18,875 bases of DNA from Escherichia coli (GTDB lineage: Bacteria; Pseudomonadota; Gammaproteobacteria; Enterobacterales; Enterobacteriaceae): NCBI RefSeq assembly GCF_003334335.1, contig NZ_QOWQ01000056.1. One strand, written 5' to 3'. The notes beneath the pieces are model-generated. The model was not told the origin of the DNA. It did no database searches and saw only the letters and a program-made list of their open reading frames with translations. Of this stretch, positions 784 through 18,875 are shown one piece after another (the first letter of the stretch is position 1; every line of letters begins with the position of its first letter). The position numbers were made by a program, and so were the translations under genes.

Positions 784-868
784 GTGAAATTCGAGAATGA
801 AAGGAGAAGTAGTCATTATAAGCCTTTTATAAATCGTCATCATCATAGTAAAGTAGAACACTTTTTAT

Positions 869-1339: not shown

Positions 1340-1438
1340 AAGTTATGGCTGTTCTGATACAGGAAAATAAACGTTCATTCTATGGTTACCTCTTCCTGTT
1401 ATATAAAAGAATTTTAAACAACAAGTAAGGGAATATAA

Positions 1439-2125: not shown

Positions 2126-2377
2126 AATTGTTATTATGAGATATCTATAACACCTGAAGTTGGAAAAAGAAGCAAATAATTCCTTATAAGGAATCGTTTA
2201 CTAATATATTTAGATAATCTCATATTTGTTTATGATATACATCTGATTAAGATATAATGGATTATAAATTACTCAAAGGTGAACAAATATCTTCGCCTTT
2301 TCTCGTAGAAAGAGACTTGAAACTTATAATACATCTATATAAACGTGATTTAAATCACGGTTTGCAGTAAAAGCAAT

Positions 2378-2386
2378 TGGTATAAT
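2378..2386 (+). promoter_or_regulatory. Candidate extended -10 promoter element (TGgTATAAT) for the immunity-like/microcin-like pair
   Basis: tggtataat at 2378-2386 fits the TGnTATAAT extended -10 pattern; the nearest -35-like hexamer (ttgcag, 2362-2367) has a short 13-nt spacer. Sequence-only prediction. Confidence 0.25.
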
Positions 2387-2570
2387 TCATTGGTATTACT
2401 ATTATTTCATCTATTGCACGAACTATTTTACAACAATAAAAAAGATATACAAACAGCAAGAAGTAAAAATATTCGGATAAATAAAAATTTTTGCTACCTT
2501 GGTTTCTATAGTCTTTATTTCTAAGTTTTTCATAAGCACTCAAAGACTCATGTATAGGGACGGTTTAATA

Positions 2571-2735
2571 ATGAAACTATTTTTTTATTTCTCGTTGTTC
2601 TTTATAATACAACTTATAAATTCAGACTTAGACACATTAACCCTTTATCTTTTCATAAAGAAAATAATTCTTTCGTTACTTGCGAGTGTACTGTTTTTAT
2701 TTGTTTTATCTTTCTTTAATAAAAAGAGGAAATAA
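2571..2735 (+). CDS. Candidate microcin immunity protein (small two-helix hydrophobic peptide, about 54 aa)
   Basis: The track ORF 2499-2735 starts at TTG; in-frame ATGs occur at 2550 and 2571, and the 2571 one has aggga 11 nt upstream. Product MKLFFYFSLFFIIQLI...IILSLLASVLFLFVLSFF NKKRK has two hydrophobic helices and a basic tail. Stop TAA (2733-2735) is 1 nt before the microcin-like ATG, and the precursor's RBS lies inside its last codons. Confidence 0.4.
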   Translation: MKLFFYFSLFFIIQLINSDLDTLTLYLFIKKIILSLLASVLFLFVLSFFNKKRK

Positions 2736-2736
2736 C

Positions 2737-3060
2737 ATGAGAAATATAACAACCGATGAACTTGCTTTAATACATGGTGCAGGATTAGATAAAGATGCAT
2801 CCGTTGCAATAGGTACTGCGGCTGGTGGTTTTTTAGGTAAAGCAACAAAAATCCCTGGTGCGGATATAGCAGGAAGTGCAATTGGAGGATATATTGGAGG
2901 AGTTATTGCTGATGGTTCAAATAGGACAATAACAATACCATCAAACGGTATTAACTATAATCCGGGTATAGGACTTGGAAGTTTTAATCCAAACTACAAT
3001 GGAGGTTTATTAAACTCAGGATTTAACTCATCAACATCCTCTTCTAGTAGTGGAAGTTGA
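2737..3060 (+). CDS. Class IIb (siderophore-type) microcin-like precursor, 107 aa: 15-aa double-glycine-type leader plus 92-aa Gly/Ser-rich core
   Basis: ATG at 2737 with strong SD aagagga (2724-2730). Leader MRNITTDELALIHGA|G parallels MchB MREITESQLRYISGA|G and the MRxI(S/T)xxEL pattern. Core is cysteine-free, 20/92 Gly, and ends NSSTSSSSSGS like the Ser-rich tails of H47 and E492 that receive the salmochelin-type moiety. The track's 126-aa version starts at TTG (2680) with no RBS and overlaps the upstream ORF. Confidence 0.7.
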   Translation: MRNITTDELALIHGAGLDKDASVAIGTAAGGFLGKATKIPGADIAGSAIGGYIGGVIADGSNRTITIPSNGINYNPGIGLGSFNPNYNGGLLNSGFNSSTSSSSSGS

Positions 3061-3069
3061 TTAATTTCT

Positions 3070-3105
3070 AAAGCAGCATAGCTTATTATGCAGCAATGCT
3101 GCTTT
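3070..3105. terminator. Candidate bidirectional rho-independent terminator between the convergent microcin-like gene and mchF
   Basis: aaagcagcat (3070-3079) pairs with atgctgcttt (3096-3105); an alternative tighter hairpin gcagc-aat-gctgc is followed by tttt. Located between the stop at 3060 (+) and the stop at 3121 (-). Confidence 0.45.
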
Positions 3106-3120
3106 TAGTGATATATTATC

Positions 3121-5223
3121 CTAATTTGTAATTCTAAAAATCCGATCAACTGTTCTTAAAGTTGTCTCTCTATGTGCAATAATCACCCGGGTGATATTCA
3201 TCTTTTTTATAGCAGCATTCACGAAACGTTCACTTTCTGTATCAAGAGAACTTGTAGCCTCATCCATAAATAATATTCCAGGTTTCCGGTATAAAGCTCG
3301 GGCAATGAATATACGCTGTTTTTGACCGCCGGAAAGACCTTCCCCCAGTTCACCTATTAACGTTTCATACCCCATTGGCATTTTCATTATCACATCATGA
3401 ATATGACTTGCTCTGGCACATTCTGTCATCCATTCGTCGTCTGTTTCTTCTGCAAACCCACAGATATTTTCACGAATTGATCCTGAAAATAGCCGGTCGT
3501 CCTGCATAACACAGGCTATCATACGGTGATAATTATTTATTCCAAGTTGACGTATATCCGTGCCATTAACCAGTACTTTTCCACTATCTGGTTCAAACAG
3601 TCCACATAATACTTTCATTAATGTGGTTTTTCCGGCACCGGAGGCACCAGTTATAGCCACACTTTCTCCCGGAGCCACAGACAAATTCAGACCACTGAAT
3701 ACCTGTGCTGACTGGCTGTCATACCGGTAGCTTAAATCAGTGGTTTCCAGTGAAACCGGGCTCATGTCAGCAACGATTTCAATTTCCGGTTTCTTTTCTT
3801 CCTTTTCATGTAGTGCAATATCTGCAATGCGCTCATTATGCAGACTCATTATTCTCAGTTGAAGAAGAAAACTGGTCAGCGAAGCAACCCGATCCGAAAA
3901 CTGCCCACGAAAAGAACCAAATGCCACAAACATCCCTATTGTCATCTGATTATCGATCACAAGGCTTGCACCCAGCCATAAAATCGCCACCTGATCACAG
4001 GCGGCAACAAAAGTATTTATCCCCCCGAAGAGCAAATCCATCCTGGTTAACTTAATACCTGAATTGATCGCATCTATTTTCAGGTTAAGCCAGTGTGTTC
4101 CCCGAATCCCAGCCATACCCTGGATTTTTACCGTGGCAATACCATACAGGCTTTCCATAAAATAGGAGCTGGCCCGGGCCCCCCTGACAAGAGTTTCTTC
4201 CGATATTTGCCGGTAATAGCCGTATGTCACCAGACGAATAAGAACGTAAACCATGGTAAAACCGAGCACTATCCAGGTAAGATATCCTCCATATAACAGC
4301 ATCATCACAAAAACACCCACAACCATAATACTGTCCATGATTGCCCCAACAACACAGGTGGTAAAGGTGGCCCTCAAAGTGTCAAGGGAGCCAAAACGCG
4401 ACTGGATATCACCTAATTTACGGCGTTCAAAAAACGCCAGCGGCAGTCTGAGAAGATGGTTAAACAGACCCGACTGCCACTGTATATTGATGAGCGTGCT
4501 CATAACCAGTGAGGACCATGCACGCAGCATACTCACCGCGGCCCTGAGCAATATAAAGAACATCAGGCCAGCAGAAATAAGCGTCAGCAGCCCTCTGTCC
4601 CCCGCCGGAATCGCATGATCCATAACCAGCTGAGTTCCCACCGGCATTACCAGATTGATTGCTTCAATTACAACTGACAGACAGAAAATTTTCGCCAGTG
4701 TTCTTTTAATACCGTAAATACTGTTAATCAGTGAACGGAGACTTATGCGGGTCTGCTGGGTTTCCGCCAGGAATTCACTTCCGGGCCAGACCTCAAGTGC
4801 AATGCCCGTAAAATACCGGCTCATTTCCTCCCGACCGAGATATCTTCTGCCTCTGGCCGGATCATGCAGTACATAACGGTTACGCTTTACGCTGACCAGC
4901 ACGACGAAGTGACTGAAATCCCAGTGGAGAATACACGGCATTTTGAGGGCACCAAGTTCATCCAGCTCCAGTGAAAGAGCCCGGGTGACCATCCCCAGCT
5001 GCTCCGCTATTCCATTGATTCCTGCAAGGTTTGCTCCACGGGCCGAGAGATTAAACTTCCGGCGAAGAGATATCAGGTCAATATTCTTACCAAAATGACC
5101 GCATATCATTGCCAGGCAGGCCAGTCCACATTCAGCGGTCTCCGTCTGATGAATAACCGGAACACGACGTCGCCAGCGCATATCAAGCTGATTTATAATT
5201 TGTCTGAAATTCCCGTTAGTCAT
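3121..5223 (-). CDS. mchF: Microcin export ABC transporter with N-terminal C39 peptidase domain (CvaB/MchF family)
   Basis: About 700 aa. C39 catalytic Cys context [14 protein letters not shown]; Walker [10 protein letters not shown]; ABC signature LSGGQKQR; Walker [10 protein letters not shown]. The track ORF (to 5241) begins at GTG; the ATG at 5223 ([10 protein letters not shown]) has AGGA 9 nt upstream and overlaps the mchE stop by 8 nt, as in cvaA/cvaB. Confidence 0.93.
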
Positions 5224-6457
5224 TGAGCGGTCCTGTTGCACTGTGTTTCATGTCATAGAAAGGAGAAAGCATCCACTGGTAAATACGCCTTTTTTCCAGA
5301 AATAGTGTACTTTCGGCTTTCATTCCATTTTCCAGAGGGAGGTATTTTTCGTCATATCTGATAATCTGCTTTTCAGGCATCGCAATGACTTTATACCAGG
5401 GAACAGAGTCGCCCGGCGTATTCTGTGGTGCTCCCTTATAGGTCAACATTTCCTGTGTTGACGCAGGAGTCCTGGATATAGTTTTAACCGTAGCAGAGAA
5501 CTGCCCAAATTTTTCTGCCGGAAAGGCTTCATAACGAATATTCACTTTGTCACCAGCCGAAATATAAGGAACAGCATCATTCGGGACCCAGAGAATAAGA
5601 TAATAGTTTTCAATGTTCTCAGGAATAACCTGCAGAAGGCTGTCTCCGGTATTGACCATTTGCCCGACAGTGACACTCAGGGAGTCAACTTTCCCGTCAG
5701 TCAACGCCCGGATAATGATTTCGCCCTCCACATCAGTGTTAACCAGTTCTTTCTGTAACTCATACCGTTGCAGTTCCATCTGGTAGATACGGTTATCAAA
5801 ATCTGCAGCCTGAGTCTGAATCTGACTCTCCAGAGTGGTTATCTGCAGGGCATTCTGTTCGTTCTGTCCGCTCAGGCTGAGAAGATTGTTTTGTTGCTGA
5901 TAATATAATGCCACCTGGTTAGTTAACTGATCTTTATTAATCAGCCCTTTTGCCTGATAGTTTCTGTAATTCTCCATATTGTTTTTCATTATTTTTATCC
6001 CTTCCTCTGCACGCTGTATAATATCTGATGAGCGACGAAACGCATCTGTGTATTGCAGGCGTTGTTTTTCCAGGGTATCTAGCGTTATTTTTTTACTTTC
6101 TTCCAGACGGGAAATAATGTTGTCCACACGAACCAACTGGTTTTCTATATCCCGACGATGATTATCAGTGACAATACCACTACGTGTACTTTTACTGATG
6201 TCAATCAGATAAACAGGATCCCCTTTTTTTATCAACTGTCCTTCATGAACAAACTGCCTGACAACAAATCCCTGTACACCTGAATATATATTGACAGCTC
6301 TTGGCCAGGTTGTGACCTCACCACTGACATTAACACGGCGGCTATAGGTACCAACAATAATGAACATCAGAAATGCCGTAATAAACACTATGCTTCCCAG
6401 CATGATTAACCATAGTGGTATTCCGGGAAGTAATATTGCCCGTCCCTGCCACTTCAT
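5216..6457 (-). CDS. mchE: HlyD-family membrane fusion / secretion protein (CvaA/MchE family)
   Basis: N-terminal TM segment ([28 protein letters not shown]) followed by a long coiled-coil region and C-terminal beta domain typical of HlyD-type partners. The track ORF starts at TTG (6490); the first ATG is at 6457 ([12 protein letters not shown]), giving 413 aa. Confidence 0.92.
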
Positions 6458-6642
6458 TTTTCTGTTTTCTAAAGCATCCTGACGAAACAAAATAGCTCCT
6501 CTTACTCACACTTTTCCTGTAATATCTTCACTGGTTAACCGAAATGCTATAATCAAAGCCAGAAAATACAGAGTCCTGTCAAAATAGTATCAGCGATGCA
6601 TTTACCCCGTAATTTACAATTATCTCTGTATCTTCAGAGGTA

Positions 6643-7095
6643 CTACGTTTTATGCAGCCGCTCAGGGATGTATGTCACAATTTTCTTTCGCCTGCTTAAC
6701 CATCGTACTTCTCCTTCTCCCCATGGCTGAAGCTGTATGAGATAGTCAATAACTTTTCGACCAAAGCCTGGTTTACAACAGAAATCCAGAATCCAAATCC
6801 TTCCATCTTCATTCCATTCAGACGGATGCAACCTGAATTCTGGATCCCTGAGCAGGCGCGCTTCTGTATCAGCCTCAAGATATGCCCAGGTAATATACGC
6901 CAGTGGAAAACCTCGTGAATCAAACAGGAATTTAATCTGATTATGCTGTATCGCATATTCAGTCCAGTATTGAATGGTTAACACCGGATACAGACTGTAA
7001 TTACGATTGTAGAGCATACAACTGACCGCAAAACCGATCTGTTCATAAACAGTCCATTCATCTTTTCCTCTGATGGTTTCCCTTATATAAGACAT
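6643..7095 (-). CDS. mchD: MchD/MceI-like microcin maturation protein (HlyC-like acyltransferase family), 150 aa
   Basis: ATG start at 7095; 150 aa; located between mchC and mchE in the conserved mchBCDEF order. In the E492 system the MceI/MceJ pair links glycosylated enterobactin to the C-terminal Ser of the precursor. Confidence 0.8.
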   Translation of the reverse strand: MSYIRETIRGKDEWTVYEQIGFAVSCMLYNRNYSLYPVLTIQYWTEYAIQHNQIKFLFDSRGFPLAYITWAYLEADTEARLLRDPEFRLHPSEWNEDGRIWILDFCCKPGFGRKVIDYLIQLQPWGEGEVRWLSRRKKIVTYIPERLHKT

Positions 7096-7120
7096 GATTA
7101 CTATTTCCCTTATATATTTT

Positions 7121-8671
7121 TTACACTGTGTTTCTTATCGGTTCAAGATATCCAAATGCATCTCTGGAAAACTTAAGCATAAAATTTTTCATATCAGAAA
7201 TTGCTTCTTGTAAAAAAAGGGGATCATCGCCATGATTATCCAGCAGGATGGCAATTTTTTCGCACATATTCTCTTTCCTCAGCTCTTCCCTGGGTTGCAG
7301 CCTTTTCATGGTATGATGTTCAATTTCTTTCAGGAGTAATGAGGCATTTATCTGACGTCTGGTACTGCCTTGCGTCAGCCAGTGGATGGCCTGGGAAAAA
7401 CACTGTTGTGCAACGGTGAAATAAACATCATTCTTGATGCTACTATTCAGTGCCTGCTTTTGATTATGCCTATGATGGATTAGCGTCACAACCAACTTTT
7501 GCAATGGTGAACCATCCTGATTGACAATATCTTGGGCATGTGATTTCTCGCAGTATTGATTGAGTAATGCAACAAAACTGTTAACCAGTTCTTTCAATAT
7601 ATCAGGTATCTCTTTTTGTGTTATAAATTCTCCAGGAATACCCAACAGTTCTAGATAACAGTAATAACATGCTTCATGAAAAGTTTTCTGAAATATCTCC
7701 TCAACCTTCAAACGGGCTGCAAGAGTGAAGTCAGGGTCAAACATATATTTTCCGATATACAAGCAGAGATCAGACAGCCCTTGCATAAGTACCATCGGTT
7801 CTTTTGCCAGTTCAGCTAATCTTAGTTTATACCCAAAATCAGCTGGGGAATCTCCCGGAAACAGACAACTGAGTCCGCTAAAATCCATTAATCTGCCATC
7901 CATTGCAATATTAGAAGGAGAAGTTGTCAATCTCAGGAAACGTGTTCGACAAAATGCCATTTGCCAGGCCTCACGACGTGCCAGTTCACATAACCCCTCA
8001 ATGCAATAAATCCGGGGATCAGTTCGTGCTTCAGCATCAATTTCTTCCGGTGGTACAGGTAGATATCCTGGCAGCTTGTGGATCACAGATCTAACCCGAC
8101 AGGCATCGTGAATTAACAGACTGGAATACTCCGGTTTTACTTGGAAGTAAGGTGCCCGTTCAAAATGCGCCGGACGAACAACAGGCTCACGTACCAACAG
8201 GGCTCTTCGTGATTTCCTACCGGAGCGCTCAAATGCCTTTTCAGTATAGAGATCTGTAAGTAAAACCGCCCGAACCCGCACAGCACTATAAGGTAATATT
8301 TGAGCCAGTACTTCTCCCCACAAAGCCTCATATATTGCATGAACAGCGCCGAGTGCACCATTAGAATGACGTTCGTCAGTACCTTCGCCAACCAACGGAT
8401 TACTTCCTATTCCTTTAACCTGGTAGTTACCATCAAACCCACAACGTGCACCACCTCCATTACGCTGAATACCACTGCCACCATAGCGCTCTGCATGGAA
8501 CACTTTGGCAGAAGCTGTACTGCCAGGATCGATAATATAACTGCAGGCATTTTGCAGCTCGTCTGGATTTCTGACATCCTCTGCACACCAGATTAATGAG
8601 GCCTTGATCTGCCTGGCAGTGAAAGGCACCAGGTTTTCATTCAGTTCAGAAAGTGAACACTGATGACTCAT
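7121..8671 (-). CDS. mchC: MchC/MceJ-like microcin maturation protein, 516 aa
   Basis: ATG start at 8671 (MSHQCSLSELNENLV...), GGAG about 12 nt upstream; 516 aa; immediately downstream of mchB on the same strand and upstream of mchD. Confidence 0.85.
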   Translation of the reverse strand: MSHQCSLSELNENLVPFTARQIKASLIWCAEDVRNPDELQNACSYIIDPGSTASAKVFHAERYGGSGIQRNGGGARCGFDGNYQVKGIGSNPLVGEGTDERHSNGALGAVHAIYEALWGEVLAQILPYSAVRVRAVLLTDLYTEKAFERSGRKSRRALLVREPVVRPAHFERAPYFQVKPEYSSLLIHDACRVRSVIHKLPGYLPVPPEEIDAEARTDPRIYCIEGLCELARREAWQMAFCRTRFLRLTTSPSNIAMDGRLMDFSGLSCLFPGDSPADFGYKLRLAELAKEPMVLMQGLSDLCLYIGKYMFDPDFTLAARLKVEEIFQKTFHEACYYCYLELLGIPGEFITQKEIPDILKELVNSFVALLNQYCEKSHAQDIVNQDGSPLQKLVVTLIHHRHNQKQALNSSIKNDVYFTVAQQCFSQAIHWLTQGSTRRQINASLLLKEIEHHTMKRLQPREELRKENMCEKIAILLDNHGDDPLFLQEAISDMKNFMLKFSRDAFGYLEPIRNTV

Positions 8672-8695
8672 CTGGCAGTATTCTCCGTTTCAATT

Positions 8696-8721
8696 TTCAT
8701 AAAAGAGTGTTCATAAAAGAG
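8696..8721. repeat. Tandem 12-bp direct repeat (ttcataaaagag x2, 2-nt spacer) in the mchC upstream region
   Basis: ttcataaaagag at 8696-8707 and again at 8710-8721, 25-50 bp upstream of the mchC start codon (8671, minus strand). Candidate operator or UTR element. Confidence 0.3.
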
Positions 8722-8942
8722 CAAGTAAGTGTCCTGACAGCTTCTTCCTTATTACAGTAAAACTCTATTAATTACACATAAATTAAAAAATTATTTATCA
8801 ACGACTGTAAATCATATCTTCATCAGTAAAGTGTTGAACATAAAAACACACTTATAAATGGATCTTCTATCTGTTTTAAACAAAAAGGATATATTTTACA
8901 GGTACTACCGAAAAAGTGCCTGTAAAATAAATAAAAATATAA

Positions 8943-9170
8943 TTAGCTACCGCCACCAGCAGAAGAACTGGCACTACCACTTCCCACGGTCGAGCCAATT
9001 GCTGTTGTCAAACCGGCAGATACGGCTCCAACTACAACCCCAAGTGGACCACCAGGTATTCCGGCGAGAGCTCCAACAATAGCTGCAGCACCTGCAGCAT
9101 TAGCTGAAGTCGCTGGCGCACCTCCCGCCCCGGAAATATATCTTAACTGTGATTCTGTTATTTCTCGCAT
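8943..9170 (-). CDS. mchB: Microcin H47 precursor (75 aa; 15-aa double-glycine-type leader, Gly/Ala-rich core, Ser-rich C-terminal tail)
   Basis: Translation MREITESQLRYISGAGGAPATSANAAGAAAIVGALAGIPGGPLGVVVGAVSAGLTTAIGSTVGSGSASSSAGGGS matches the microcin H47 precursor as I remember it (length, leader, SASSSAGGGS tail). ATG at 9170. Confidence 0.95.
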   Translation of the reverse strand: MREITESQLRYISGAGGAPATSANAAGAAAIVGALAGIPGGPLGVVVGAVSAGLTTAIGSTVGSGSASSSAGGGS

Positions 9171-9197
9171 ATAAACTGCATATAAACTCCATCATAT

Positions 9198-9407
9198 TTA
9201 ACTTCCGTTTTTCCAGTCTGACCAGACCAGAATCCTTCGAATCCCATGAATCAGCTCAATAAAACCAAGAAATATTATAAAGCTTAGAAAAACGTCAACA
9301 TAAGAATTCCCTTCGCCAACAATCCGAAGGGATGAAAGTGAAACCAATAAGATAGTAATAGGTAAACTGAATATAGCCGTCAATTGGGACAGTTTTTTAT
9401 AACTCAT
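9198..9407 (-). CDS. mchI: Microcin H47 immunity protein (69 aa, membrane peptide)
   Basis: 69-aa hydrophobic peptide (two predicted TM helices) directly upstream of and co-directional with mchB; ATG at 9407. Size and position match MchI. Confidence 0.88.
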   Translation of the reverse strand: MSYKKLSQLTAIFSLPITILLVSLSSLRIVGEGNSYVDVFLSFIIFLGFIELIHGIRRILVWSDWKNGS

Positions 9408-9475
9408 TAATCCCTACCTGTTGCTTTATTTTCATTATGAAAAGTTACCAAATCTTAGCACCTCAGTCAGGAGAG

Positions 9476-9595
9476 TCAGGTCATCGATAAAGAATATTCC
9501 AGTAGAGTGGCGCTCATGATCAAAGATAACAGCAAAGTTGATGACAGTGCTGACCGACTGTCATTTACAGAAACCCTGTTTGTAGCAAATTCCAT
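9476..9595 (-). CDS. mchX: Small 39-aa ORF upstream of mchI (MchX-like regulatory peptide)
   Basis: Not in the track (below 60 aa); found by hand: ATG at 9595 to TGA at 9476-9478, translation MEFATNRVSVNDSRSALSSTLLLSLIMSATLLEYSLSMT (39 aa). Position and length match mchX of the H47 system; I cannot confirm the sequence from memory. Confidence 0.55.
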   Translation of the reverse strand: MEFATNRVSVNDSRSALSSTLLLSLIMSATLLEYSLSMT

Positions 9596-9626
9596 CTTAC
9601 CTGACCTCACCCAGACAAAGACAAAA

Positions 9627-9645
9627 GAGAATGATTGTTATTTAC
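9627..9645. promoter_or_regulatory. Weak Fur-box-like site in the mchX / mchS4 divergent promoter region
   Basis: gagaatgattgttatttac matches the 19-bp Fur consensus at 13/19; it sits about 30-50 bp upstream of the mchX start on the minus strand. Confidence 0.3.
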
Positions 9646-9818
9646 TTTTCAAAAAAAGTGTCATATTGTCCATATAAAGTCAAGAGGTATTTTACGTTAT
9701 GTCACTGATGCAATTGTTAGTCAGGATCTCATGGTTGTCGCTCATGTATAACCTGAGACTTGAACGCACACTAATAGCGCTGACGGTCATACATCGGGAA
9801 ATGTGAGGAGGCATAAGA

Positions 9819-10064
9819 ATGAATTGTGATAATAATCACAGAAATGAAGAATTCATTGTTACCTTTGATAAAGGCAACAAGCAAGACAATTCAAGACGAA
9901 AACACGATAATTTTCCTATAGAGGTAGAATCCTCCGTAGAGCAGGAGACACACTGTATCACAAATAATAAGTCAGCTTCCGGTATAGTAACACATGGCTA
10001 TGATGCCGATTATATTTGTGGTTGTGGTGAAATTATGTGTCCTGGTTGCGGTCATGACCTATAA
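9819..10064 (+). CDS. mchS4: Small 81-aa protein with C-terminal Cys cluster (CxC-x4-CxxC), MchS4-like by position
   Basis: ATG at 9819 with SD gaggagg (9805-9811). C-terminus YICGCGEIMCPGCGHDL. Position between mchX and mchS3 matches the H47 island gene order as I recall it. Confidence 0.55.
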   Translation: MNCDNNHRNEEFIVTFDKGNKQDNSRRKHDNFPIEVESSVEQETHCITNNKSASGIVTHGYDADYICGCGEIMCPGCGHDL

Positions 10065-10084
10065 CAAACATTTTTGCAAACTGA

Positions 10085-10098
10085 TACCTGATCAGGTA
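10085..10098. repeat. Perfect 14-bp palindrome tacctgatcaggta just downstream of mchS4
   Basis: tacctgatcaggta is its own reverse complement; lies 21 bp after the mchS4 stop and about 120 bp upstream of mchS3. No loop, so it looks more like a protein-binding site than a terminator. Confidence 0.3.
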
Positions 10099-10219
10099 CA
10101 AGCCTGTTGATTATTATGCTGAATATTTCATGTTATAAAACCATCGATATAAACATTAACAAGAAAAAACATATATTGTTTATCTGAACATTTATCGATG
10201 GAAAACCAAAGGGGAAAGT

Positions 10220-10654
10220 ATGTATCTTACGAAAAAGATTATAATAAGTATGATGTTTATATTACCATCTGCTGCATTTTCATCAGATCCACCTCCCCTT
10301 CAACAATCGTTAGAAAAAACAACCTATTTTTCTATAGGTATGAATGGGTTTATAGGCTATCAGAGCGAAGGGGAAAAATTATACACACACATTCTTACAT
10401 TAGATAATCCCGAAGAGATATTTAAAAATATAATAGAAAATAGAAAGTCAACTAAGGAGTCTAAAATTTATGCTGCTTGTGGGCTATATTATTTAAACGT
10501 AGAAAATATAGAGTCATTGTTTAATGAAAATGATAAACAAGAATATATGTCTGTCTTAAGAGGGGATATTTTAACAAAAATAAAACTGAATGATATTCTG
10601 AATTCTGTGATAATAAATGGTTGCAACACCAAATTAATATCTGAACATAAATGA
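10220..10654 (+). CDS. mchS3: Putative immunity protein for the downstream microcin (144 aa, N-terminal signal/anchor), MchS3-like
   Basis: ATG at 10220 with SD aaagggga upstream; N-terminal hydrophobic segment KKIIISMMFILPSAAFSS; ends 16 bp before the microcin precursor gene, the classic immunity-then-toxin arrangement. Confidence 0.65.
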   Translation: MYLTKKIIISMMFILPSAAFSSDPPPLQQSLEKTTYFSIGMNGFIGYQSEGEKLYTHILTLDNPEEIFKNIIENRKSTKESKIYAACGLYYLNVENIESLFNENDKQEYMSVLRGDILTKIKLNDILNSVIINGCNTKLISEHK

Positions 10655-10670
10655 GCAGGAGGTTTTTAAA

Positions 10671-10907
10671 ATGAGAGAAATATCAGATCACATGCTTGAT
10701 TTCGTGAAAGGAGGGATGAATCTTAATGGATTACCTAGTTCTACTAATGTAATAGATCTACGAGGAAAAGATATGGGAACATATATTGATGCTAATGGAA
10801 CATGCTGGGCTCCGGGTACTCCATCCATCATCATGTATCCGGGGGGAAGTGGACCTTCTTATAGTATGAGTAGTTCCACATCCAGCGTAAACAGCGGCAC
10901 ATCATAA
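10671..10907 (+). CDS. mchS2: Second siderophore-microcin-type precursor (78 aa; leader MREISDHMLDFVKGG, Ser-rich tail), microcin I47-like
   Basis: ATG at 10671 with SD aggagg (10657-10662). 15-aa leader ending GG, 63-aa core with one Cys, C-terminal SMSSSTSSVNSGTS. Position next to mchS3 and mchS1 matches the H47 island. Confidence 0.8.
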   Translation: MREISDHMLDFVKGGMNLNGLPSSTNVIDLRGKDMGTYIDANGTCWAPGTPSIIMYPGGSGPSYSMSSSTSSVNSGTS

Positions 10908-10940
10908 ATACCCTCCGGCATGGCCGGAGGGTATTTATGA
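10902..10940 (+). terminator. Rho-independent terminator-like hairpin at the end of mchS2
   Basis: 18-nt arms tcataaataccctccggc / gccggagggtatttatga around a 3-nt loop (atg), with a GC-rich core ccctccggc/gccggaggg; overlaps the mchS2 stop codon. Confidence 0.5.
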
Positions 10941-11191
10941 TGTGCCTGTAAGACTCTACTTCTGTCGTCTCTTAACAAAGGCATATGATCTGTCATTTTG
11001 TACCAGACATCTTAACGAGAGCCTTTTCATATATTACTTACACACGTGAAATCTACAGTATAAAGCAAAAATTTTATTAAACCTGTTTTATATTTATCAT
11101 CAATACAACAGATTTAATTCCGGAAAGTCACTCATCATCCCTTGAATGAACGTCATTTGATGTATTATTCTTACACTTGGATTAATTTAAG

Positions 11192-12466
11192 ATGATACCT
11201 ATGAAAAACTATCTTTTCCAGACTCCCGAAGATATTTGTGTACAGTTAAAAAAAATGACACATCCTGTCACAATAAGAACAACAGATATTGCTAATTTCT
11301 GGCACTATCTTGAGTCAGCAACACTTCCAGTGATCACAAAAAGCACCACTACAGAAAATCGGGAGGTTACATTTCTGTGGCGCTCAGAGAAAGCACTGCA
11401 AGGCGTATATCTTCGCCTGAATCGTGTTACAGATAAAAAAGACGTCAAAAAAGGACTAATGACTCATATCCCTTCGACAGATATCTGGATGCTGACACTG
11501 GTGTTACCAGCTTCATATCGGGGCTCATACTCATTTATAGAAATTCCCACAGATATGACACAAAAAGACATATTTCAACTAGGAAGTCGCTTCTCTCCAT
11601 TACCCGGTAAATCTGATCCATTTAACAAAACAGCAGAAATAAATATACGAGGATTCGGAGAATCAGTCCTTTCTCTTGATATGGCTCCTGAACAAAAGGA
11701 ATGGGATGATACTTCCCATAAATGTACAGGTATTCTTTCAACATTACATTCCTTTGTTGCAGGATATCAACGCCGGATTCGTTTATATTTCCCCCTGAAT
11801 CCAACATCAGTACCTCTTGGATTACTTGTGTTACCTGATGCTGAAACATGGTTTGACCGGATAGATATTACCCGGGCATTAGATATGGCCATCACCACTG
11901 GTCGTATCACGCCAATGGCAATTATGGGGATAGACAATATTAATGAATCTGATCGTATGAATATACTGGGAGGCAATAAAGAACTCATCTTTGATATAGC
12001 GGAAAATCTGATACCCCAGTTATACAGAGACTATCCGGATATCGTATGGGCTGGTCGCTCTAATACTGTACTGGCCGGGCAGAGCCTCGGTGGAGTGACA
12101 GCACTGATGGCAGCTATATATGCGTCGACAACATTTGGTACAATCATTAGTCACTCACCTTCAATGTGGTGGAACCCTGACCAGGGCAGCCCGATCTTGT
12201 TTACTGAGAATAATACCTCCTGGGTAAGTGAGCAGATACTTTCAGCGCCTCCGAAAGATGTAAATATCCGACTTGGAGTCGGTTCTTTAGAAGGTACAAC
12301 CGTCTCACATGTTCAGCGATTGCATCATTCGTTAATCGCAGCTGGTTTGGAAAGTAACCTCACTGTCTATACCGGTGGTCACGATTATGCTTGGTGGCGC
12401 GGAGCAATTATTGATGAATTAGCAAATTATAATTGCAGGAAGGTATCAAATAATAACTCTGTGTAA
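11192..12466 (+). CDS. mchS1: IroD-like enterobactin/salmochelin esterase (alpha/beta hydrolase), 424 aa
   Basis: Serine-hydrolase nucleophile motif GQSLGG (AGQSLGGVTALMAA); size close to IroD/Fes-type esterases; convergent with and adjacent to the IroB-like glycosyltransferase. Alternative ATG at 11201. Confidence 0.8.
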   Translation: MIPMKNYLFQTPEDICVQLKKMTHPVTIRTTDIANFWHYLESATLPVITKSTTTENREVTFLWRSEKALQGVYLRLNRVTDKKDVKKGLMTHIPSTDIWMLTLVLPASYRGSYSFIEIPTDMTQKDIFQLGSRFSPLPGKSDPFNKTAEINIRGFGESVLSLDMAPEQKEWDDTSHKCTGILSTLHSFVAGYQRRIRLYFPLNPTSVPLGLLVLPDAETWFDRIDITRALDMAITTGRITPMAIMGIDNINESDRMNILGGNKELIFDIAENLIPQLYRDYPDIVWAGRSNTVLAGQSLGGVTALMAAIYASTTFGTIISHSPSMWWNPDQGSPILFTENNTSWVSEQILSAPPKDVNIRLGVGSLEGTTVSHVQRLHHSLIAAGLESNLTVYTGGHDYAWWRGAIIDELANYNCRKVSNNNSV

Positions 12467-12535
12467 AATATCGTTTTATCGTCCGATAACTCTTTCTGCA
12501 ATATTATTATGGGAGACTGTCTCATTTATTTAGTG

Positions 12536-12564
12536 ATGTCCTTCATTTATGTGATGAAGGACAT
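12536..12564. terminator. Candidate bidirectional terminator hairpin between convergent mchS1 and mchA
   Basis: atgtccttcat (12536-12546) and atgaaggacat (12554-12564) form an 11-bp stem with a 7-nt loop, flanked by T/A-rich runs on both sides. Confidence 0.45.
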
Positions 12565-12607
12565 TATATTACTCATAACATTTCTCGTTGAAAATTTCAG
12601 CAATACG

Positions 12608-13732
12608 CTACAATTGTTTCCCGTTGTTTTTTAATTTTCTCATCAAAACCTCTGCGATCTCTGCAGGAGTGGGTTGTTCAGCCATTTCAGCGGCTACCTG
12701 ATCTGAACAGAAGCGTAGTGAATCATCATAAAGCAGGCGATTTACCAAATCACTGGTCAGTCCATGCTTGTCCGGAATAATCCCACACCCACGCTTCGCA
12801 ACAATTTCTGCATTAACAGAGCGATCTGCACCTTCTCCAAACACAATCTGTGGTATTCCACTATACAGCGCTGTCAGGGTATTACCTGCGCCACCGTGAT
12901 GAATAAATCCATCAGCTCCATTAAGGAATACACCCATAGGTATCCAGTCAACCAGACGTACATTTGATGGTAGTTTTCGTAATCCAGTACGAGCATTTAT
13001 TGCAAGTTGCAAAATGATATCAGCATCAACTTCATTTGCTGAATCCATAACCCATGAAATCAGCTCCAGACCATCAACCATTGGTTTTACAGTGCCAAGG
13101 CTGATGAGTAAACGTTTCCGATCAGAATCCCTGTCCCACCATGTTTCCTTTACAGCACCTCCGTTATAAGGAATATATCGCATTGAGATAATCGGTTCTT
13201 CAGCATTTTTAAGAATGCTCATACTTGGGGGAGCAACATCAATCCATGCTAAATCACATAGTGGACCGCTGACTCCATGCCGCCTGTAAGCATTGCTTAA
13301 AGAACGGTTTAACATCTGAATATGGGCAGATGTATGCGCGAATCCAACAGCCAGCATCACTGAAGGAATTCTATATTTAGCAGCAACCAATGGGCCTGCC
13401 GGACCAAGCGGGGGATAGACTATTAAATCTGGCCTCCATTTTCCTGCAAAATCGATGAGGTTATCTGCCATTTCATCGCTAAAAAAAGAGAAATGACCAA
13501 TAATATTACTTTTTTTCCTCAACTCTTCCTGATGGCGATATCCAGCCTCTGAATCTAAACTTGGAGCTGCATCAAAAACAACCAGTCCAGCTTCTGCTGC
13601 TTTATTCGCGAATTTGCCAGCGCTACTAATTACTACATCATGTCCGATTACACGAAAGGCCTGAGCCAGAGAAATCAATGGGTATAACAAACCGTACAGC
13701 GGAGGGCCAATAAAAAGAATACGTTTTCGCAT
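12608..13732 (-). CDS. mchA: IroB-like C-glycosyltransferase (GT1/MGT family) for enterobactin glucosylation, 374 aa
   Basis: ATG at 13732 (MRKRILFIGPPLYGLLYPLISLA, the IroB-like N-terminus); UDP-sugar-binding signature region FIHHGGAGNTLTAL; length close to IroB. Confidence 0.88.
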   Translation of the reverse strand: MRKRILFIGPPLYGLLYPLISLAQAFRVIGHDVVISSAGKFANKAAEAGLVVFDAAPSLDSEAGYRHQEELRKKSNIIGHFSFFSDEMADNLIDFAGKWRPDLIVYPPLGPAGPLVAAKYRIPSVMLAVGFAHTSAHIQMLNRSLSNAYRRHGVSGPLCDLAWIDVAPPSMSILKNAEEPIISMRYIPYNGGAVKETWWDRDSDRKRLLISLGTVKPMVDGLELISWVMDSANEVDADIILQLAINARTGLRKLPSNVRLVDWIPMGVFLNGADGFIHHGGAGNTLTALYSGIPQIVFGEGADRSVNAEIVAKRGCGIIPDKHGLTSDLVNRLLYDDSLRFCSDQVAAEMAEQPTPAEIAEVLMRKLKNNGKQL

Positions 13733-14072
13733 TAAAAAAGTCCGTCTTCTGCTTACCTGTTTATTTTTCTATCGCTAAGAAAACATAATTAATATTATTT
13801 TTATGTGAGCTTATGCACAAAAATAACAAAGTATCTTATCTTCTGGTAGAGATACAGGATACAGTTTGTAGGAGCTTTCTTTTTTTGAACAATGATTTGC
13901 AGGACAGTTATGCCAACCTAGCAGAATCAGTATCACAACAATAAATGACAGATCATACCTGAAATTTGAATTAACAGGCATCATGAATGTCAATAGTCTA
14001 AGCGGTTACTACTTACATCGCTTGCATAAATACTAAACACTGACTAGAAAAGTATTGGATAACCCCGTCACT

Positions 14073-14105
14073 AAAAGTAACACTTCGGTTATTTGCTCGG
14101 AATGT
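14073..14105. repeat. Right copy of the imperfect direct repeat bracketing the microcin island
   Basis: See the 398-430 entry; the core at 14083-14105 is 21/23 identical to 408-430. It lies in the 675-bp non-coding gap between mchA and the alpA-like gene. Confidence 0.45.
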
Positions 14106-14407
14106 ATCAACGCCAAGATTGTTAGCCGTTACGCCTTATATCACTGGCGCTGACAAATGTTTCTTTTCTAATTTACTGAACCGGCGCAGACTTACAGAAA
14201 AACACTCCGGCACCGGTGTAATGCCAGTTATAATCAATAAGAATAGAATGACGAATCAGTCAGGAATAGCTATAACCTGCAGGCTGACTGGAGAATGTCT
14301 GTAAGAAGATGAACGTAAATGTCGCCAGTACCAGGGGCAGGGCCGGGTTCCACAATACCAGCGCCGGCATTTTGCACATTGCCAGCGTACCGGCATCACA
14401 ACACGTT

Positions 14408-14644
14408 TCATGCAGCTGCTCCTCGTGATTCCTCAATTCGCTGCTGCATCCACTGCTCCACTTCACTTTTGTACCAGCGGCTGCTGCGACCCAGTTTTAT
14501 GGGTTTAGGAAAATGACCTTCACTGATCAGCTTGTAAAACCATTTATCGGTCATACCGGTGAAACTGGTGATGTAGTTCATGTCGATCAGGGGATCGTCG
14601 GCACGCAGCAATACACTGTCGTGGCCTGTTATTGAGGTCAACAT
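14408..14644 (-). CDS. alpA: AlpA-family phage/island transcriptional regulator (excisionase-like DNA-binding protein)
   Basis: MTDKWFYKLISEGHFPKPIKLGRSSRWYKSEVEQWMQQR fits the AlpA-type helix-turn-helix pattern. ATG at 14644 with GAGGA upstream; alternative internal ATG at 14581 would give 57 aa. Confidence 0.75.
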   Translation of the reverse strand: MLTSITGHDSVLLRADDPLIDMNYITSFTGMTDKWFYKLISEGHFPKPIKLGRSSRWYKSEVEQWMQQRIEESRGAAA

Positions 14645-14712
14645 AGTCAGGATGTCCTCTGTGAGATTTATGGAGGTTGGGCAAATGCTGGTGAATCTGC
14701 TGAACTGAGCTT

Positions 14713-15288
14713 TCAGAACAGTCCTGCAGATCCGGGATAGCCGGGATTACCGGCGAGGCAACGGGCTTCCGGATCGCACACACCACGACGATCGCGGGCG
14801 AAATCACTGAACGCCCAGATCAAGTCTTTGAGGATGTCTTCGCAGTCCGGTGAACGACTGTCCAGCACCACATCCCGGGTGATCTGCTTCTGGTACGGTG
14901 CTGCTTCACCCGGTGATGCGAAGCCCAGTACGTTGCTCCAGGCATCCAGAATCAGCCGATCCAGTTCAGGGCCGTCGAAATACTCTTGTCTGACGCATAA
15001 CACCACGTGGTATTCCGGCTTTTCCGGATGACGGGTCAGGAGCCAGCAAAGGTCGCGTCCGGGTTTCGCATTCATCAGCGCACTGACGGTTTCGATAAAA
15101 TCCATACCAAACCAGGTCTGTCTGCTGTTGAAGGCGTTGTCATGTTCCCACGGCAGACGAAGCAGGATCCGCCGTATCCGTGAGCCGGACTGCTCACGCA
15201 GCGCACGCTCAAGGACGCCGATGACTTTGTTCTGATAAGATGGCCAGAAGGGTGCCAGGCTATAGTCGAAATAAGGAATAGCATTCAT
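14713..15288 (-). CDS. Inovirus Gp2-family (YagK/YfjJ-like) protein, about 191 aa
   Basis: The track ORF starts at TTG (15318); first ATG at 15288 (MNAIPYFDYSLAPFW...). Contains a YHVVLCV segment and shares overall pattern with the upstream paralog. This family is typical of P4-like islands next to alpA. Confidence 0.6.
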   Translation of the reverse strand: MNAIPYFDYSLAPFWPSYQNKVIGVLERALREQSGSRIRRILLRLPWEHDNAFNSRQTWFGMDFIETVSALMNAKPGRDLCWLLTRHPEKPEYHVVLCVRQEYFDGPELDRLILDAWSNVLGFASPGEAAPYQKQITRDVVLDSRSPDCEDILKDLIWAFSDFARDRRGVCDPEARCLAGNPGYPGSAGLF

Positions 15289-15535
15289 AAGATATGTTCC
15301 GTTATGCGCAGCCCACAATGCGTCCTGCCCGTGAATGAGCTGACGTGTTATGGCTTGCGGAATGAGATTGATGGAATAAGTGAAGAACCGAAGCAGAACG
15401 GGAAGACAAGGAACAAAACACCGGATGCAGGTTCAGGATGAATGATCTCCGTTGACTTCAGTTCACATCATTAATCAAGGCGGTAAGTTTTTACCGACGG
15501 AGTGTTTCCAGGAGCGAAGGCTCAGGCCTTAAGCT

Positions 15536-16102
15536 TCAGAAGTGAGGCTTACGAGGACGCCCTGCAGCAGGACGTTCAGGAACTTCATTGCAGCCGTAGG
15601 CACACAACCCGTCTTTTTGCTCTTCTTTCGCCAGATAATGCAGAGCACCGCGAATATTATCGATGCTTTCAGGCTCGTTATGACGCACAGGAATGTTGAT
15701 GTTGTATGTATAATGCGGCTGATATGTACAGCAGTGTGCCGAACCGCTGTTATGCGTAATAGACCGCCAGCATTCCGTAATCCGCTCCGCAAAGGGATAT
15801 ATTTTTTTAACCCTCTGACGATCGATCCAGAAAACCACATGCGCATGAAAACCATGATCAACCGTCCATTCAATCACCCAGAAGAAGCCAACCATATTTT
15901 CAAATTGTTCAACCTGCTCCAGCAGCATACGCAACTGCAATTCAAGCCAGCGATGATCAGGTTGTAAGAAATCGGGCGTATCTTTCCTGTAGAAGAAATC
16001 CATCCGTAAGGCCCGCAGGCAGGAATAGCGTGCCATCATTTGATTGATGTGATTGTCAAGTAAAGCGGTAAAAAACCAGTTTGGTGTGTAAGATTTAGGC
16101 AT
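15536..16102 (-). CDS. Inovirus Gp2-family (YagK/YfjJ-like) protein with HUH-like motif (FHAHVVFW), 188 aa
   Basis: ATG at 16102 with AGGAG 8-12 nt upstream. HAHVVF resembles the HUH motif of rolling-circle initiators from which this family derives. Tandem with the 14713-15288 paralog. Confidence 0.65.
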   Translation of the reverse strand: MPKSYTPNWFFTALLDNHINQMMARYSCLRALRMDFFYRKDTPDFLQPDHRWLELQLRMLLEQVEQFENMVGFFWVIEWTVDHGFHAHVVFWIDRQRVKKIYPFAERITECWRSITHNSGSAHCCTYQPHYTYNINIPVRHNEPESIDNIRGALHYLAKEEQKDGLCAYGCNEVPERPAAGRPRKPHF

Positions 16103-17585
16103 GTTGATGACTCCTGAAAGTTAATGATGTTTTAAGCTCTGTGAACGAATTAATGCTTTCGCTCATAATCAGATCTAAAACGGTAATAACTTACAGACGG
16201 TATTTATCAGGCATGCTGTAGCAGAATGGATACGACGGGTTATTAACGATACGCAGCATTATGCAGAAAGAAATGGATTATCTGATGGTATTAGCTAAAG
16301 AGATGAGATAAACGAGGAGTAAAGAAAATACAGACTCAATAAAACATCACGAAATACTGCAAAATACGCGATAAAACACCACGACCAGAAGGTTAAGAAA
16401 CATATTGCGACCAATCACATCATAAACTACAAACTTGCTCTCAGTGGTTGTAAAAACCGAGTACAAGGCCAATGCAATAAACTTATATGTGCTCATTCAA
16501 TCTGTTCTTAAGGACATGAACATTCACGGCTCACGATAGCAGAATAAAAAATACCACTGACATGATTTTCATCCTGCATCTTAGATAATACAACCCAGAA
16601 CAAACATAATCAGGAATCTCTCCTGTCAATTCCATTGTTTATCCAGCTCTGTTAATCGTTACAGAATCATGGATACCTTATCAAAAAGTAAACATTCGGT
16701 TAATCAGTGATGACAGAGGAATTGATGTTCATCAGAATAGTTAAAACACTTCAGGTCAACAACAATCATCGTTAAGCAAATACGATTCATGATGGATAAG
16801 ATTAAAATCAATTGCTGTTGCAGTGAAGACTGATAACAGATGGATATCAGCAACAGCGTAGTAGAGAATAACTTATCTGAATATTATATGAGTTACAGTA
16901 GTTATGATTGAATGAAAGGGAAGTTGATATTGTGATAATGGCGACAAAAAAGATTAGAGAAGGACATGAGTGAGTAAAGACAGAGTGAATAAAGATAGAG
17001 ATTATTTAAAAAGGGAGTGAGTATAGTTGAATGAGAGTAAGAGTAATGGAATGTGTAAAAACAGAGAGTGAATATAATTATAGTAATAAACCTAAATTAA
17101 AGTCATCCATGTTTGATGAGTAAAAATAATGTCAGAAAATGAATTTGTTTGAAAATTTTTCTCAGAGATAACCGTTCTGATGCTCAACGAACTCAATAAA
17201 TTGGCTAAGTCAGGTTACCTCATCCACACTCTATTTATTTTTATAAGAACCAATCATTTTGATCACCTACCGAGACACATCAATTTAGTGATGCGATAGT
17301 ATTGTATTGGTTATATAGATATTTATCGTTGTTGCCAATGCCCGGATTATTGGCCTCCAGGTATTCTCTTTACTTACAAACTAATTTTGAAACAGAGGTC
17401 GCTCCATTTTAGGAGTAGAATCTATGTAAAAGTCTGCTATGAGTGAGGAGCGAAAGTTTGATTGTCCCTCTAGGCTAGCTAATGAAAAAACTGAATTTTG
17501 AGCATTATTGCACGATAATCTTAGAGGTTGGTTACAGAATGTTGTGATATGATCCTCGATCACTTTAACTCATTGAATTTAAATT

Positions 17586-18800
17586 ATGGACAGTGGATTC
17601 GTAGATCTCGATATACTTCTTACACGAATTAGGCATGCCCAGTCGAAAACATACTTTCTTGATGCCGTTAAGGCCTACAAAGCGGGCGCGTTGAGGGGGG
17701 CACTAACTTCCGCTTGGGTTGCTCTCGTCTACGATCTGATAGCCAAATATCGTGAGCTTAGTGCCATGGGCGATGCAGCAGCGACTGCATTTCTTAATAC
17801 TTGGGACAACGCGACTAAATCAGGTGACATCCCTAAACTTCTCCAACTTGAGGGGGGCATTCTTGAAGACGCAACGGCCAATGCTCAGGTAGTCAACCGG
17901 TTAGCCCGAACTCACTTAGACCGTCTTCGCGAGGATAGGCATCTTTGCGCGCATCCAGCATTCTCAGCAGAAGCAGATCTATTCGAACCTTCTCATGAGT
18001 TAGTGCGACTTCATTTAGTAAATGCTGTGGAATTCGTCCTATCGCAAGAACCTTTACAGGGAAAAGCAATATTCGAGTTATATGACGTTGATGTTCAATC
18101 GCCCGGTTTTCCTACGGACAGTAAACGCATTCTTGATTATGTAGAACAACGTTATCTTACTCGCGTACGCGCTCAGAATATCAGTAACTTCGGCACGATT
18201 CTCGCCAAATCACTTCTCAAAGGTGTGCCAGAACAATGGGAAACGCTTTATCACCAGATTATTACATCATTAGTCGCCGTACGAGACCGCGCCAGCATTG
18301 CTTGGCCAAACGTTTCACTGTCAATTGTTAGGCTTATTGATAATCTAGAACCACGACATCGGCCTAGAGCGATCGCATTTATTGCCGCATTTAATGAGTT
18401 TTGGATGCAGCTTCAGGAGCCAACGCGAACAGTCTTGCTAGAGACTATTGAAAATGCCAATCCAGAAAATATCACTGATTACCGTATTTTGACTGGTGTA
18501 ACTTTCGTACCGTTTCAAGCCTCGCTGCAAAGGCTAATAACGGGACTAACTCAACAGCAGTTGGCCTCAGCGATCATCTTTAACCCACTTGCTGAACTTT
18601 GGGATAAGGCAATAGAATACTATGCAGAATCAGGTAGCTGGCGTGGATCTGAGGGGAACTTTATTTCTCTCGTCATACCGTTTTCTGGCCGCCTTAGTCA
18701 GCAACAGTTCGACCAACTTCTAGATGCTATCATTTCCAATACGCAGAATTGGGATGCCGCTGAGACGCCTAAGCTTCTCCTAGGAATGCTCCGCAATTGA
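17586..18800 (+). CDS. Hypothetical protein, 404 aa, no family recognised; N-terminal region has a HEPN-like R-x5-H motif (RLREDRH)
   Basis: Long clean ORF with ATG at 17586 and stop TGA at 18798-18800 abutting the right inverted repeat; balanced, non-repetitive composition typical of a globular protein. No convincing Shine-Dalgarno. The HEPN suggestion rests on one short motif. Confidence 0.55.
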   Translation: MDSGFVDLDILLTRIRHAQSKTYFLDAVKAYKAGALRGALTSAWVALVYDLIAKYRELSAMGDAAATAFLNTWDNATKSGDIPKLLQLEGGILEDATANAQVVNRLARTHLDRLREDRHLCAHPAFSAEADLFEPSHELVRLHLVNAVEFVLSQEPLQGKAIFELYDVDVQSPGFPTDSKRILDYVEQRYLTRVRAQNISNFGTILAKSLLKGVPEQWETLYHQIITSLVAVRDRASIAWPNVSLSIVRLIDNLEPRHRPRAIAFIAAFNEFWMQLQEPTRTVLLETIENANPENITDYRILTGVTFVPFQASLQRLITGLTQQQLASAIIFNPLAELWDKAIEYYAESGSWRGSEGNFISLVIPFSGRLSQQQFDQLLDAIISNTQNWDAAETPKLLLGMLRN

Positions 18801-18875
18801 GCCTGTACATAGATTTGTGTAATTGCCTGATTTTGATATGTTCAATCCAGCATCAAATGAAGGTTAATTTATGGA
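18799..18875. repeat. Right copy of the perfect 77-bp terminal inverted repeat (partner at 1-77)
   Basis: Exact reverse complement of 1-77; its inner boundary overlaps the last 2 nt of the stop codon of the 404-aa ORF. Confidence 0.9.

Follow-up and report, generated by a model that had tools for sequence, protein, structure and literature searches.

A PD-T7-3/DARNA-family anti-phage gene, probably disabled by IS1414, in the microcin H47 island of Escherichia coli

We analysed 18,875 nucleotides (nt) of Escherichia coli DNA, referred to below as the window, which is the entire draft contig QOWQ01000056.1 of assembly GCA_003334335.1 and represents DNA of the microcin H47 (mch) genomic island. 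Near its right end lies an ATG-initiated open reading frame (ORF) of 404 codons (17586..18800, + strand), which an earlier note, made from the sequence alone, had placed correctly and described as a clean gene of unknown family, possibly encoding a HEPN-type defence or abortive-infection protein. We conclude, with a probability of about 80%, that this ORF comprises the 5' 90% of a PD-T7-3/DARNA-family gene, a type that constitutes an anti-phage system on its own, and that the gene has probably been disabled by the insertion sequence (IS) IS1414. The features on which this reading is built are the following (ssDNA, single-stranded DNA; pLDDT, predicted local distance difference test).

16850..17585, + strand: presumed promoter region, about 735 nt 5' of the gene, about 99.7-100% identical to E. 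coli ZYB39
17586..18798, + strand: DARNA/PD-T7-3-family gene, 5' 1,213 nt (codons 1-404 and the first base of codon 405), matching the first 1,213 nt of the 1,353-nt ZYB39 allele at 100% DNA identity
17586..18059, + strand: N-terminal HEPN RNase domain, about residues 1-158
17922..17942, + strand: RLREDRH, residues 113-119, overlapping the true catalytic motif in the wrong register
17937..17954, + strand: catalytic HEPN motif R118-H-L-C-A-H123 (Rx4H), counterpart of DARNA R117/H122, from alignment and conservation
18060..18797, + strand: C-terminal alpha-helical-repeat (HEAT/Pds5-like) domain, residues 159-404, its end cut off, from PADLOC profile coverage, the alignment of DARNA-type C-terminal fragments and a model pLDDT >90
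18639..18653, + strand: W352..E356, counterparts of the DARNA ssDNA-contact residues F368 and D372, from alignment and conservation
18738..18755, + strand: N385-T-Q387-N-W389-D390, counterpart of the DARNA ssDNA-recognition motif N401-N-Q403-C-Y405-W406
18798..18800, + strand: hybrid stop codon TGA, in which T is the first base of the Ser405 codon and GA the first two bases of IS1414, from comparison with the intact allele
18799..18875, + strand: transposase-proximal end of IS1414 (IS256 family), 77 nt, reaching the transposase ATG at 18871-18873, from alignment to the NRZ14408 copy
1..77, - strand: the same 77-nt IS1414 end, inverted, at the other contig edge

The IS1414 junction

An intact version of the gene (1,353 nt, encoding 450 aa; WP_032260914.1) is present in E. 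coli ZYB39 and CFIAFB20190157, in the same slot beside a YagK/YfjJ gene. The window protein is identical to the first 404 residues of this allele (404/404), and the DNA is 100% identical to the ZYB39 copy through T18798. From there the intact allele continues for another 140 nt, beginning TCTTTACCCGCC, with TCT (Ser405) as the next codon, and the window reads GAGCCTGTACATAG, the terminus of IS1414. Thus, judged against the intact allele, the ORF is not a clean, complete gene but an IS1414-truncated one whose last 46 codons are gone, and it ends at the inverted repeat because IS1414 removed them; its stop codon overlaps the repeat by 2 nt. The lack of even one substitution against the intact allele indicates that the truncation is recent. 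The same gene-IS1414 junction was found in five contigs from more than one sample, supporting that it is real, and every contig coding for the exact 404-aa product, recorded as WP_087895153.1, terminates within the IS. With 404 aa against 450 aa, the window copy falls short of the complete protein of about 450-456 aa that is typical of PD-T7-3/DARNA, and nearly all close homologues, among the 120 listed of 475, measure about 450-455 aa (range 428-488). The cut after N404 corresponds roughly to DARNA residue 422/423, and the lost 46 residues to about the last 33 of DARNA. An early idea that the IS had removed the equivalent of the DARNA sensor residue W406 was dropped, as residues 385-390, to which the sensor motif was mapped, lie upstream of the cut.

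The earlier note had described an inverted repeat at the right edge. Indeed, the two ends of the window mirror each other: its final 77 nt (18799..18875) reproduce its first 77 exactly as reverse complement (77/77). Across 18789..18875, thousands of annotated IS1414 copies agree with the window at 95-97%, and the contig reaches only 77 nt into IS1414 on either side. As 77 nt is a usual largest k-mer of short-read assemblers, the apparent terminal inverted repeats are probably overlaps of the contig with a collapsed IS1414 node. The arrangement implies two inward-facing IS1414 copies, and both ends cut genes that are intact in other strains: on the left, the 5' part (about 115 codons) of a hypothetical gene encoding 170 aa (78..423, - strand; WP_001554640.1, intact in strain N10). 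No flanks beyond the IS ends are visible. We therefore do not regard the repeats as demonstrated boundaries, whether of an island or of a composite transposon, since both are IS1414 ends at the edges of a draft contig. On a practical matter, the case illustrates that an ORF which looks clean and stops at an inverted repeat can be a gene truncated by an IS where a draft contig ends.

The bases just outside three independent IS1414 ends are alike, namely CTCCGCAATT (window 18789-18798), GTTCGCAAG (window 78-86, reverse complement) and CTCCGCTATG (about 1592-1601 of locus L003), and IS-end BLAST matches elsewhere also reach about 8-10 nt into the flanking stretch. These similar flanks could reflect a preferred target site, or the IS terminus could extend further in degenerate form.

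Family assignment and mapped residues

PD-T7-3 came out of a functional screen (Vassallo et al. 2022, PMC9519451) and renamed DARNA in a preprint (Puteikiene et al. 2026, bioRxiv 10.64898/2026.02.22.705581), which describes a dodecameric protein of 456 aa in which a HEPN domain (R117-x4-H122) forms the N-terminal part and a helical, Pds5-like domain the C-terminal part. In that work, DARNA is activated by ssDNA presented by the phage's SSB (a protein that binds single-stranded DNA), cleaves host tRNAs in the anticodon loop and causes abortive infection; its HEPN domain is restrained by an occluding loop, activity is abolished by the substitutions F368A and W406A and requires the dodecamer, and alpha22, a helix late in the chain, forms part of the interface between hexamers (bioRxiv 10.64898/2026.02.22.705581).

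The PADLOC profile of PD-T7-3 (PDLC04108) matches the window protein with an expectation value (E) of 1.3e-36 (protein 7-391, profile 5-398 of 432) and the intact 450-aa allele with E 1.7e-36 (protein 7-392, profile 5-399). In the Protein Data Bank (PDB), the sequence matches 9wxf, ‘Dandelion’ (460 aa, 12 chains), and 9wx2, ‘Dandelion-hepn’, with E 8e-17 for the single sequence and 1.2e-19 for a profile. A literature search combining ‘Dandelion’ with HEPN and phage returned nothing relevant and no paper under that name. The nine residues named in the DARNA preprint are present in the 9wxf chain at a constant offset of +5, from which Dandelion (9wxf/9wx2) appears to be the same protein as DARNA, and thus PD-T7-3, under a second name.

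The homology spans both domains, as indicated by two comparisons taken together. A profile-profile comparison (hhalign) between the clade of the window protein and DARNA-type sequences gave a probability of 98.9%, E 1.8e-17 and 26% identity; it used a thin DARNA-type alignment and covered only residues 1-194. The C-terminal mapping comes from a broader local hidden Markov model (HMM) of 114 diverse full-length relatives, to which DARNA-type C-terminal fragments align in one piece up to HMM position 413. For these comparisons the full DARNA sequence was pieced together from the PDB alignment and the sequences P0139 and P0136, and a homologue search with the N-terminal 199 aa of Dandelion yielded only fragments of at most 346 aa. 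The protein thus has the N-terminal HEPN fold of PD-T7-3/DARNA and a C-terminal alpha-helical-repeat (Pds5-like) domain homologous to that of DARNA. It belongs to a superfamily that at 50% identity falls into 1,796 clusters (E <= 1e-3), with a typical length of 440-470 aa. The family is therefore of a known and mechanistically characterised kind, and the window gene is a distant member of it rather than the founder of a new one, present as a probably inactive copy. A protein named ‘hypothetical’ in every source can now be assigned to DARNA/PD-T7-3, with its catalytic and sensor residues mapped.

Residue conservation was counted over 125 diverse relatives of 23-80% identity. R118 and H123 are invariant (125/125), as is D117, and the pair aligns to R122/H127 of the 9wxf chain, i.e. 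to DARNA R117/H122 with the +5 offset. The earlier note had seen a HEPN motif in RLREDRH. This string is indeed present, in the right helix, and R113 is kept in 121/125 relatives; position 119, however, alternates between H (66 of 125) and N (56), so that the proposed pairing of R113 with H119 is in the wrong register, five residues off the true pair.

In the C-terminal domain, the alignment places counterparts of the ssDNA sensor of DARNA upstream of the cut. F368 corresponds to W352 (aromatic in 123/125), D372 to E356 (E in 101/125), N401 to N385 (N in 116/125) and Q403 to Q387 (Q in 108/125). W389 aligns with Y405 and D390 with W406, the latter position not being conserved. Positions 352, 356 and 387 thus appear conserved throughout the superfamily.

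The missing tail and competing readings

Several points weigh against the reading as a whole. Pfam-A and NCBIfam returned no match to the protein even at permissive thresholds. Foldseek searches gave nothing significant, neither with a first AF2 model from 30 close homologues, which returned only alpha-solenoid noise and whose unreliable HEPN domain (pLDDT 45-60) led us to replace it with a 125-sequence model, nor with the latter against the PDB, where nothing reached E <= 0.001 and 9wxf/9wx2 were evidently not among the structures compared. Over the HEPN domain, the protein shares only about 26% identity with the characterised DARNA. In place of R98, K201 and K204, through which DARNA contacts RNA, it has N99, N201 and T204, and in place of the dodecamer-interface residues F6 and N33 it has V6 and A33; none of these is conserved, and a further interface residue, E347, maps into an unaligned insertion. 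As to the truncation, the 404-aa product retains the active site and the mapped sensor residues while losing a conserved C-terminal cap; conservation within the superfamily is lowest in the tail past position 405; the full-length relatives examined, all of which have at least 24 residues beyond the cut point, form a biased set preselected at >=425 aa; and the loss of function is something that we infer, likely as we consider it.

The absence of Pfam and NCBIfam matches and the uniform database name ‘hypothetical protein’ would suit a housekeeping or other non-defence helical protein in which the HEPN and defence signals are coincidental. We regard this as effectively refuted: homology, fold, motif invariance and mobile-element context all speak to the contrary, and a gene present in only four of 5,426 complete E. 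coli genomes is incompatible with a housekeeping role.

The diverged residues bear on a different question, namely whether the clade's intact protein, while being a HEPN defence RNase built like DARNA, responds to another cue or cuts other RNAs. With about 26% HEPN identity, the replaced RNA-contact and interface residues and D390 in place of W406, the RNA target, the oligomeric state and the trigger could indeed differ, and the RNA-contact and dodecamer-interface residues may be features of the characterised protein that are not necessarily family-wide. We nevertheless consider a different cue or target rather unlikely, since few positions of the C-terminal domain are as well conserved throughout the superfamily as those that contact ssDNA, which argues for a shared ligand-binding site. 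Precisely because this distant clade seems to keep the ssDNA-binding residues of DARNA and not those for RNA contact or oligomer interfaces, it would make a useful comparison for deciding which features of the mechanism are general.

Whether the IS has disabled the gene or merely trimmed it depends on the last 46 residues. These are gap-free in 30 close relatives, with P411, R416, F419, Y432, G443 and W444 invariant, and even across the 125 relatives W/R416, F/L419, Y/F432 and G443 are kept. In the predicted structure the tail forms two packed helices (413-425 and 430-439; pLDDT >90), immediately preceded by the helix that comes after the sensor motif. The conservation of the missing tail argues that the window copy is probably inactive, a conclusion that we consider likely.

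Were the last 46 residues a dispensable, clade-specific appendage, the 404-aa product would still work in defence. The position of R118/H123 and of W352, E356, Q387 and W389, all upstream of the cut, would allow for this, many superfamily matches to the clade profile stop near position 403-410, where the most divergent part begins, and the allele occurs in its five contigs without further decay. The gap-free, partly invariant tail, its retention in distant relatives and beyond the cut in all full-length relatives of the biased set, its confident helical model, and the role of alpha22 in the inter-hexamer interface of DARNA, whose activity needs the dodecamer, make us consider this unlikely. 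Less likely by far is a deregulated or dominant-negative HEPN fragment that is toxic or interferes with an intact paralogue. HEPN toxins are often restrained by accessory domains, as is established for HepT/MNT and Csm6, and the HEPN domain with its dimer interface is intact here; yet a constitutively active tRNase would be counter-selected, the allele has no compensating mutations, and the E. coli genomes with a match have the gene in one place only, with no second copy.

We thus favour a recently disabled defence gene. By analogy with what has been published on DARNA, the complete protein of 450 aa would form dimers via its HEPN domains, build up a higher oligomer, stay idle until infection exposes ssDNA presented by the phage's own SSB, and then cut host tRNAs in the anticodon loop, so that translation stops and the infection is aborted. 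In the window, a copy of IS1414 after codon 404 replaces the last 46 codons with a gene/IS hybrid stop. As the lost segment comprises two confidently modelled helices after the sensor motif and residues conserved family-wide, the 404-aa product would most likely be misfolded or not activatable, leaving the window copy as a recently disabled gene.

Genomic context, spread and known relatives

Between the gene and the YagK/YfjJ-type gene on its left lies a spacer of 1,483 nt with a GC content of about 0.33-0.38, against 0.43-0.47 inside the ORF. The spacer had been described as 1.5 kb of ORF-free AT-rich DNA, which holds for its length and composition; it does contain one ORF of at least 60 aa, a 60-aa GTG ORF at 17381..17563 (- strand). 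No Shine-Dalgarno sequence is evident ahead of the ATG of the 404-codon ORF, no convincing promoter was found upstream, a promoter and terminator scan of 16000-18875 yielded no more sites than shuffled sequence, and an Rfam search of the entire window returned no family.

Window and ZYB39 are 75-87% identical over 16250-16850; from around 16850 through the gene (to 18798), identity rises to about 99.7-100%. This sharp mosaic boundary suggests that the gene behaves as a recently exchanged cargo module of about 2 kb, made up of the gene and some 735 nt upstream, within a diverged AT-rich spacer. Parts of the spacer are 80-88% conserved beside YagK/YfjJ genes in many E. coli genomes.

The rest of the window is shared with strains N10 and 23CRST038, which match 78..17826 at 100%. 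The microcin H47 system spans 869-13732 and is 100% identical in both; both strains carry mchF, mchB, mchI, mchS3, an esterase and a glycosyltransferase, followed by an AlpA-type helix-turn-helix gene, a hypothetical gene and the YagK/YfjJ gene. Other genes of the window are:

1439-2125: CPBP-type protease
3121-5241, - strand: mchF
5216-6490, - strand: HlyD-type gene
6643-7095, - strand: acyltransferase-like gene
7121-8671, - strand: 516-aa gene
8943-9170, - strand: mchB
9198-9407, - strand: mchI
10220-10654: mchS3
11192-12466: enterochelin-esterase-like gene
12608-13732, - strand: glycosyltransferase
15536..16102, - strand: YagK/YfjJ (inovirus Gp2-like) island backbone gene

The YagK/YfjJ gene adjoins the cargo slot in 4/4 E. 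coli genomes with the gene and lies near a homologue in an Enterobacter-type island, across a type I restriction-modification (R-M) cluster. There, a 97%-identical homologue (cluster representative named Enterobacter hormaechei) stands in the order AlpA, hypothetical, Gp2-like, type I R-M (HsdM, HsdS, AAA_13, HsdR), homologue, hypothetical, integrase. A Klebsiella homologue lies on a CP4-44/57-type island beside AbiEii and IS3, one in Pseudomonas aeruginosa next to Vsr, Ea47 and DUF5677 at that end of an element which carries the integrase, and one in Variovorax close to HNH and reverse-transcriptase genes. No neighbour recurs among the contexts in E. coli, Enterobacter, Klebsiella, Pseudomonas and Variovorax, which fits a single-gene system, and such a system on mobile elements and in defence islands is what we find. 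The neighbourhoods in other strains thus bear out the earlier guess of HEPN-type defence or abortive-infection cargo: besides belonging to the PD-T7-3/DARNA family and having the HEPN fold, the protein has relatives on integrase-bounded elements, several of them beside other defence genes (type I R-M, AbiEii, Vsr, reverse transcriptase).

In the type I R-M operon beside the 97% homologue, an AAA_13 gene lies between hsdS and hsdR (locus L004, 2553-9615; also L005-L009). The classical prr locus has the same arrangement, with the PrrC anticodon nuclease within EcoprrI. If the AAA_13 gene is PrrC-like, two different phage-triggered tRNases would lie side by side.

Among the 5,426 complete E. coli genomes, the four with any part of the gene comprise two intact copies and two that are cut at nt 241 beside an IS3-family element; in N10 (locus L002, 23749-25005; 23CRST038 alike), the first 241 nt are left, followed by the IS3-family element, and the remainder is absent from the genome. 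In a wider collection at least 1,000 contigs carry the intact 450-aa allele. Alleles shortened at the N-terminus fall into the same 90% cluster, one of 390 aa starting at M61 (P0299/P0306, in Klebsiella and Enterobacter) and one of 311 aa starting at residue 140 (P0301, in E. coli), so that the HEPN active-site region is missing in part or entirely; one of them is on 40 contigs, including a 5.25-Mb contig. It is conceivable, though doubtful, that this clade of DARNA-like genes is costly to its hosts and repeatedly knocked out, perhaps with a trigger or RNA specificity unlike that of DARNA, as the diverged RNA-contact residues would allow. If the disruptions reflect selection against autoimmunity towards own or plasmid ssDNA rather than ordinary island decay, the clade would allow the fitness cost of ssDNA-sensing abortive-infection nucleases to be studied in a natural setting.

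Among the homologues listed, some of them on plasmids, the E. coli protein is 66-76% identical to proteins of Variovorax, Paraburkholderia, Bradyrhizobium, Brevundimonas, Sphingomonas and Rhizobium. Such unusual conservation in distant hosts implies that the clade spread horizontally and recently across alpha-, beta- and gamma-proteobacteria.

The closest known system is DARNA (PD-T7-3; 9wxf). It shares the two-domain architecture, with intact alleles of 450 aa here and 456 aa for DARNA, the aligned Rx4H (R118/H123 for R117/H122), a C-terminal helical-repeat domain homologous along its length in which W352/E356/Q387/W389 take the place of F368/D372/Q403/Y405, and the habit of a single gene without a conserved partner carried as cargo of mobile islands. 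It differs in that HEPN identity is about 26%, that the clade described here is known from sequence alone, that R98, K201, K204, F6 and N33 are not kept and W406 is replaced by D390, and that the window copy lacks its last 46 residues owing to IS1414. Stand-alone HEPN domains and HEPN toxins, such as AF0298 (2hsb), TT1696 (1ufb) and HepT/HepN (5yep, 7ae2, 8xdj), and likewise Csm6 (6tug), are controlled by an MNT antitoxin, by AMPylation or by a CARF domain binding cyclic oligoadenylate, whereas the protein described here is fused to a helical-repeat sensor domain of 290 residues and has no adjacent antitoxin gene. PrrC and RloC resemble it by functional analogy only, in that phage-triggered cleavage of tRNA anticodon loops serves as a strategy of abortive infection; with an ABC-ATPase N-domain and held by a type I R-M enzyme, they have no relation to it in sequence or architecture.
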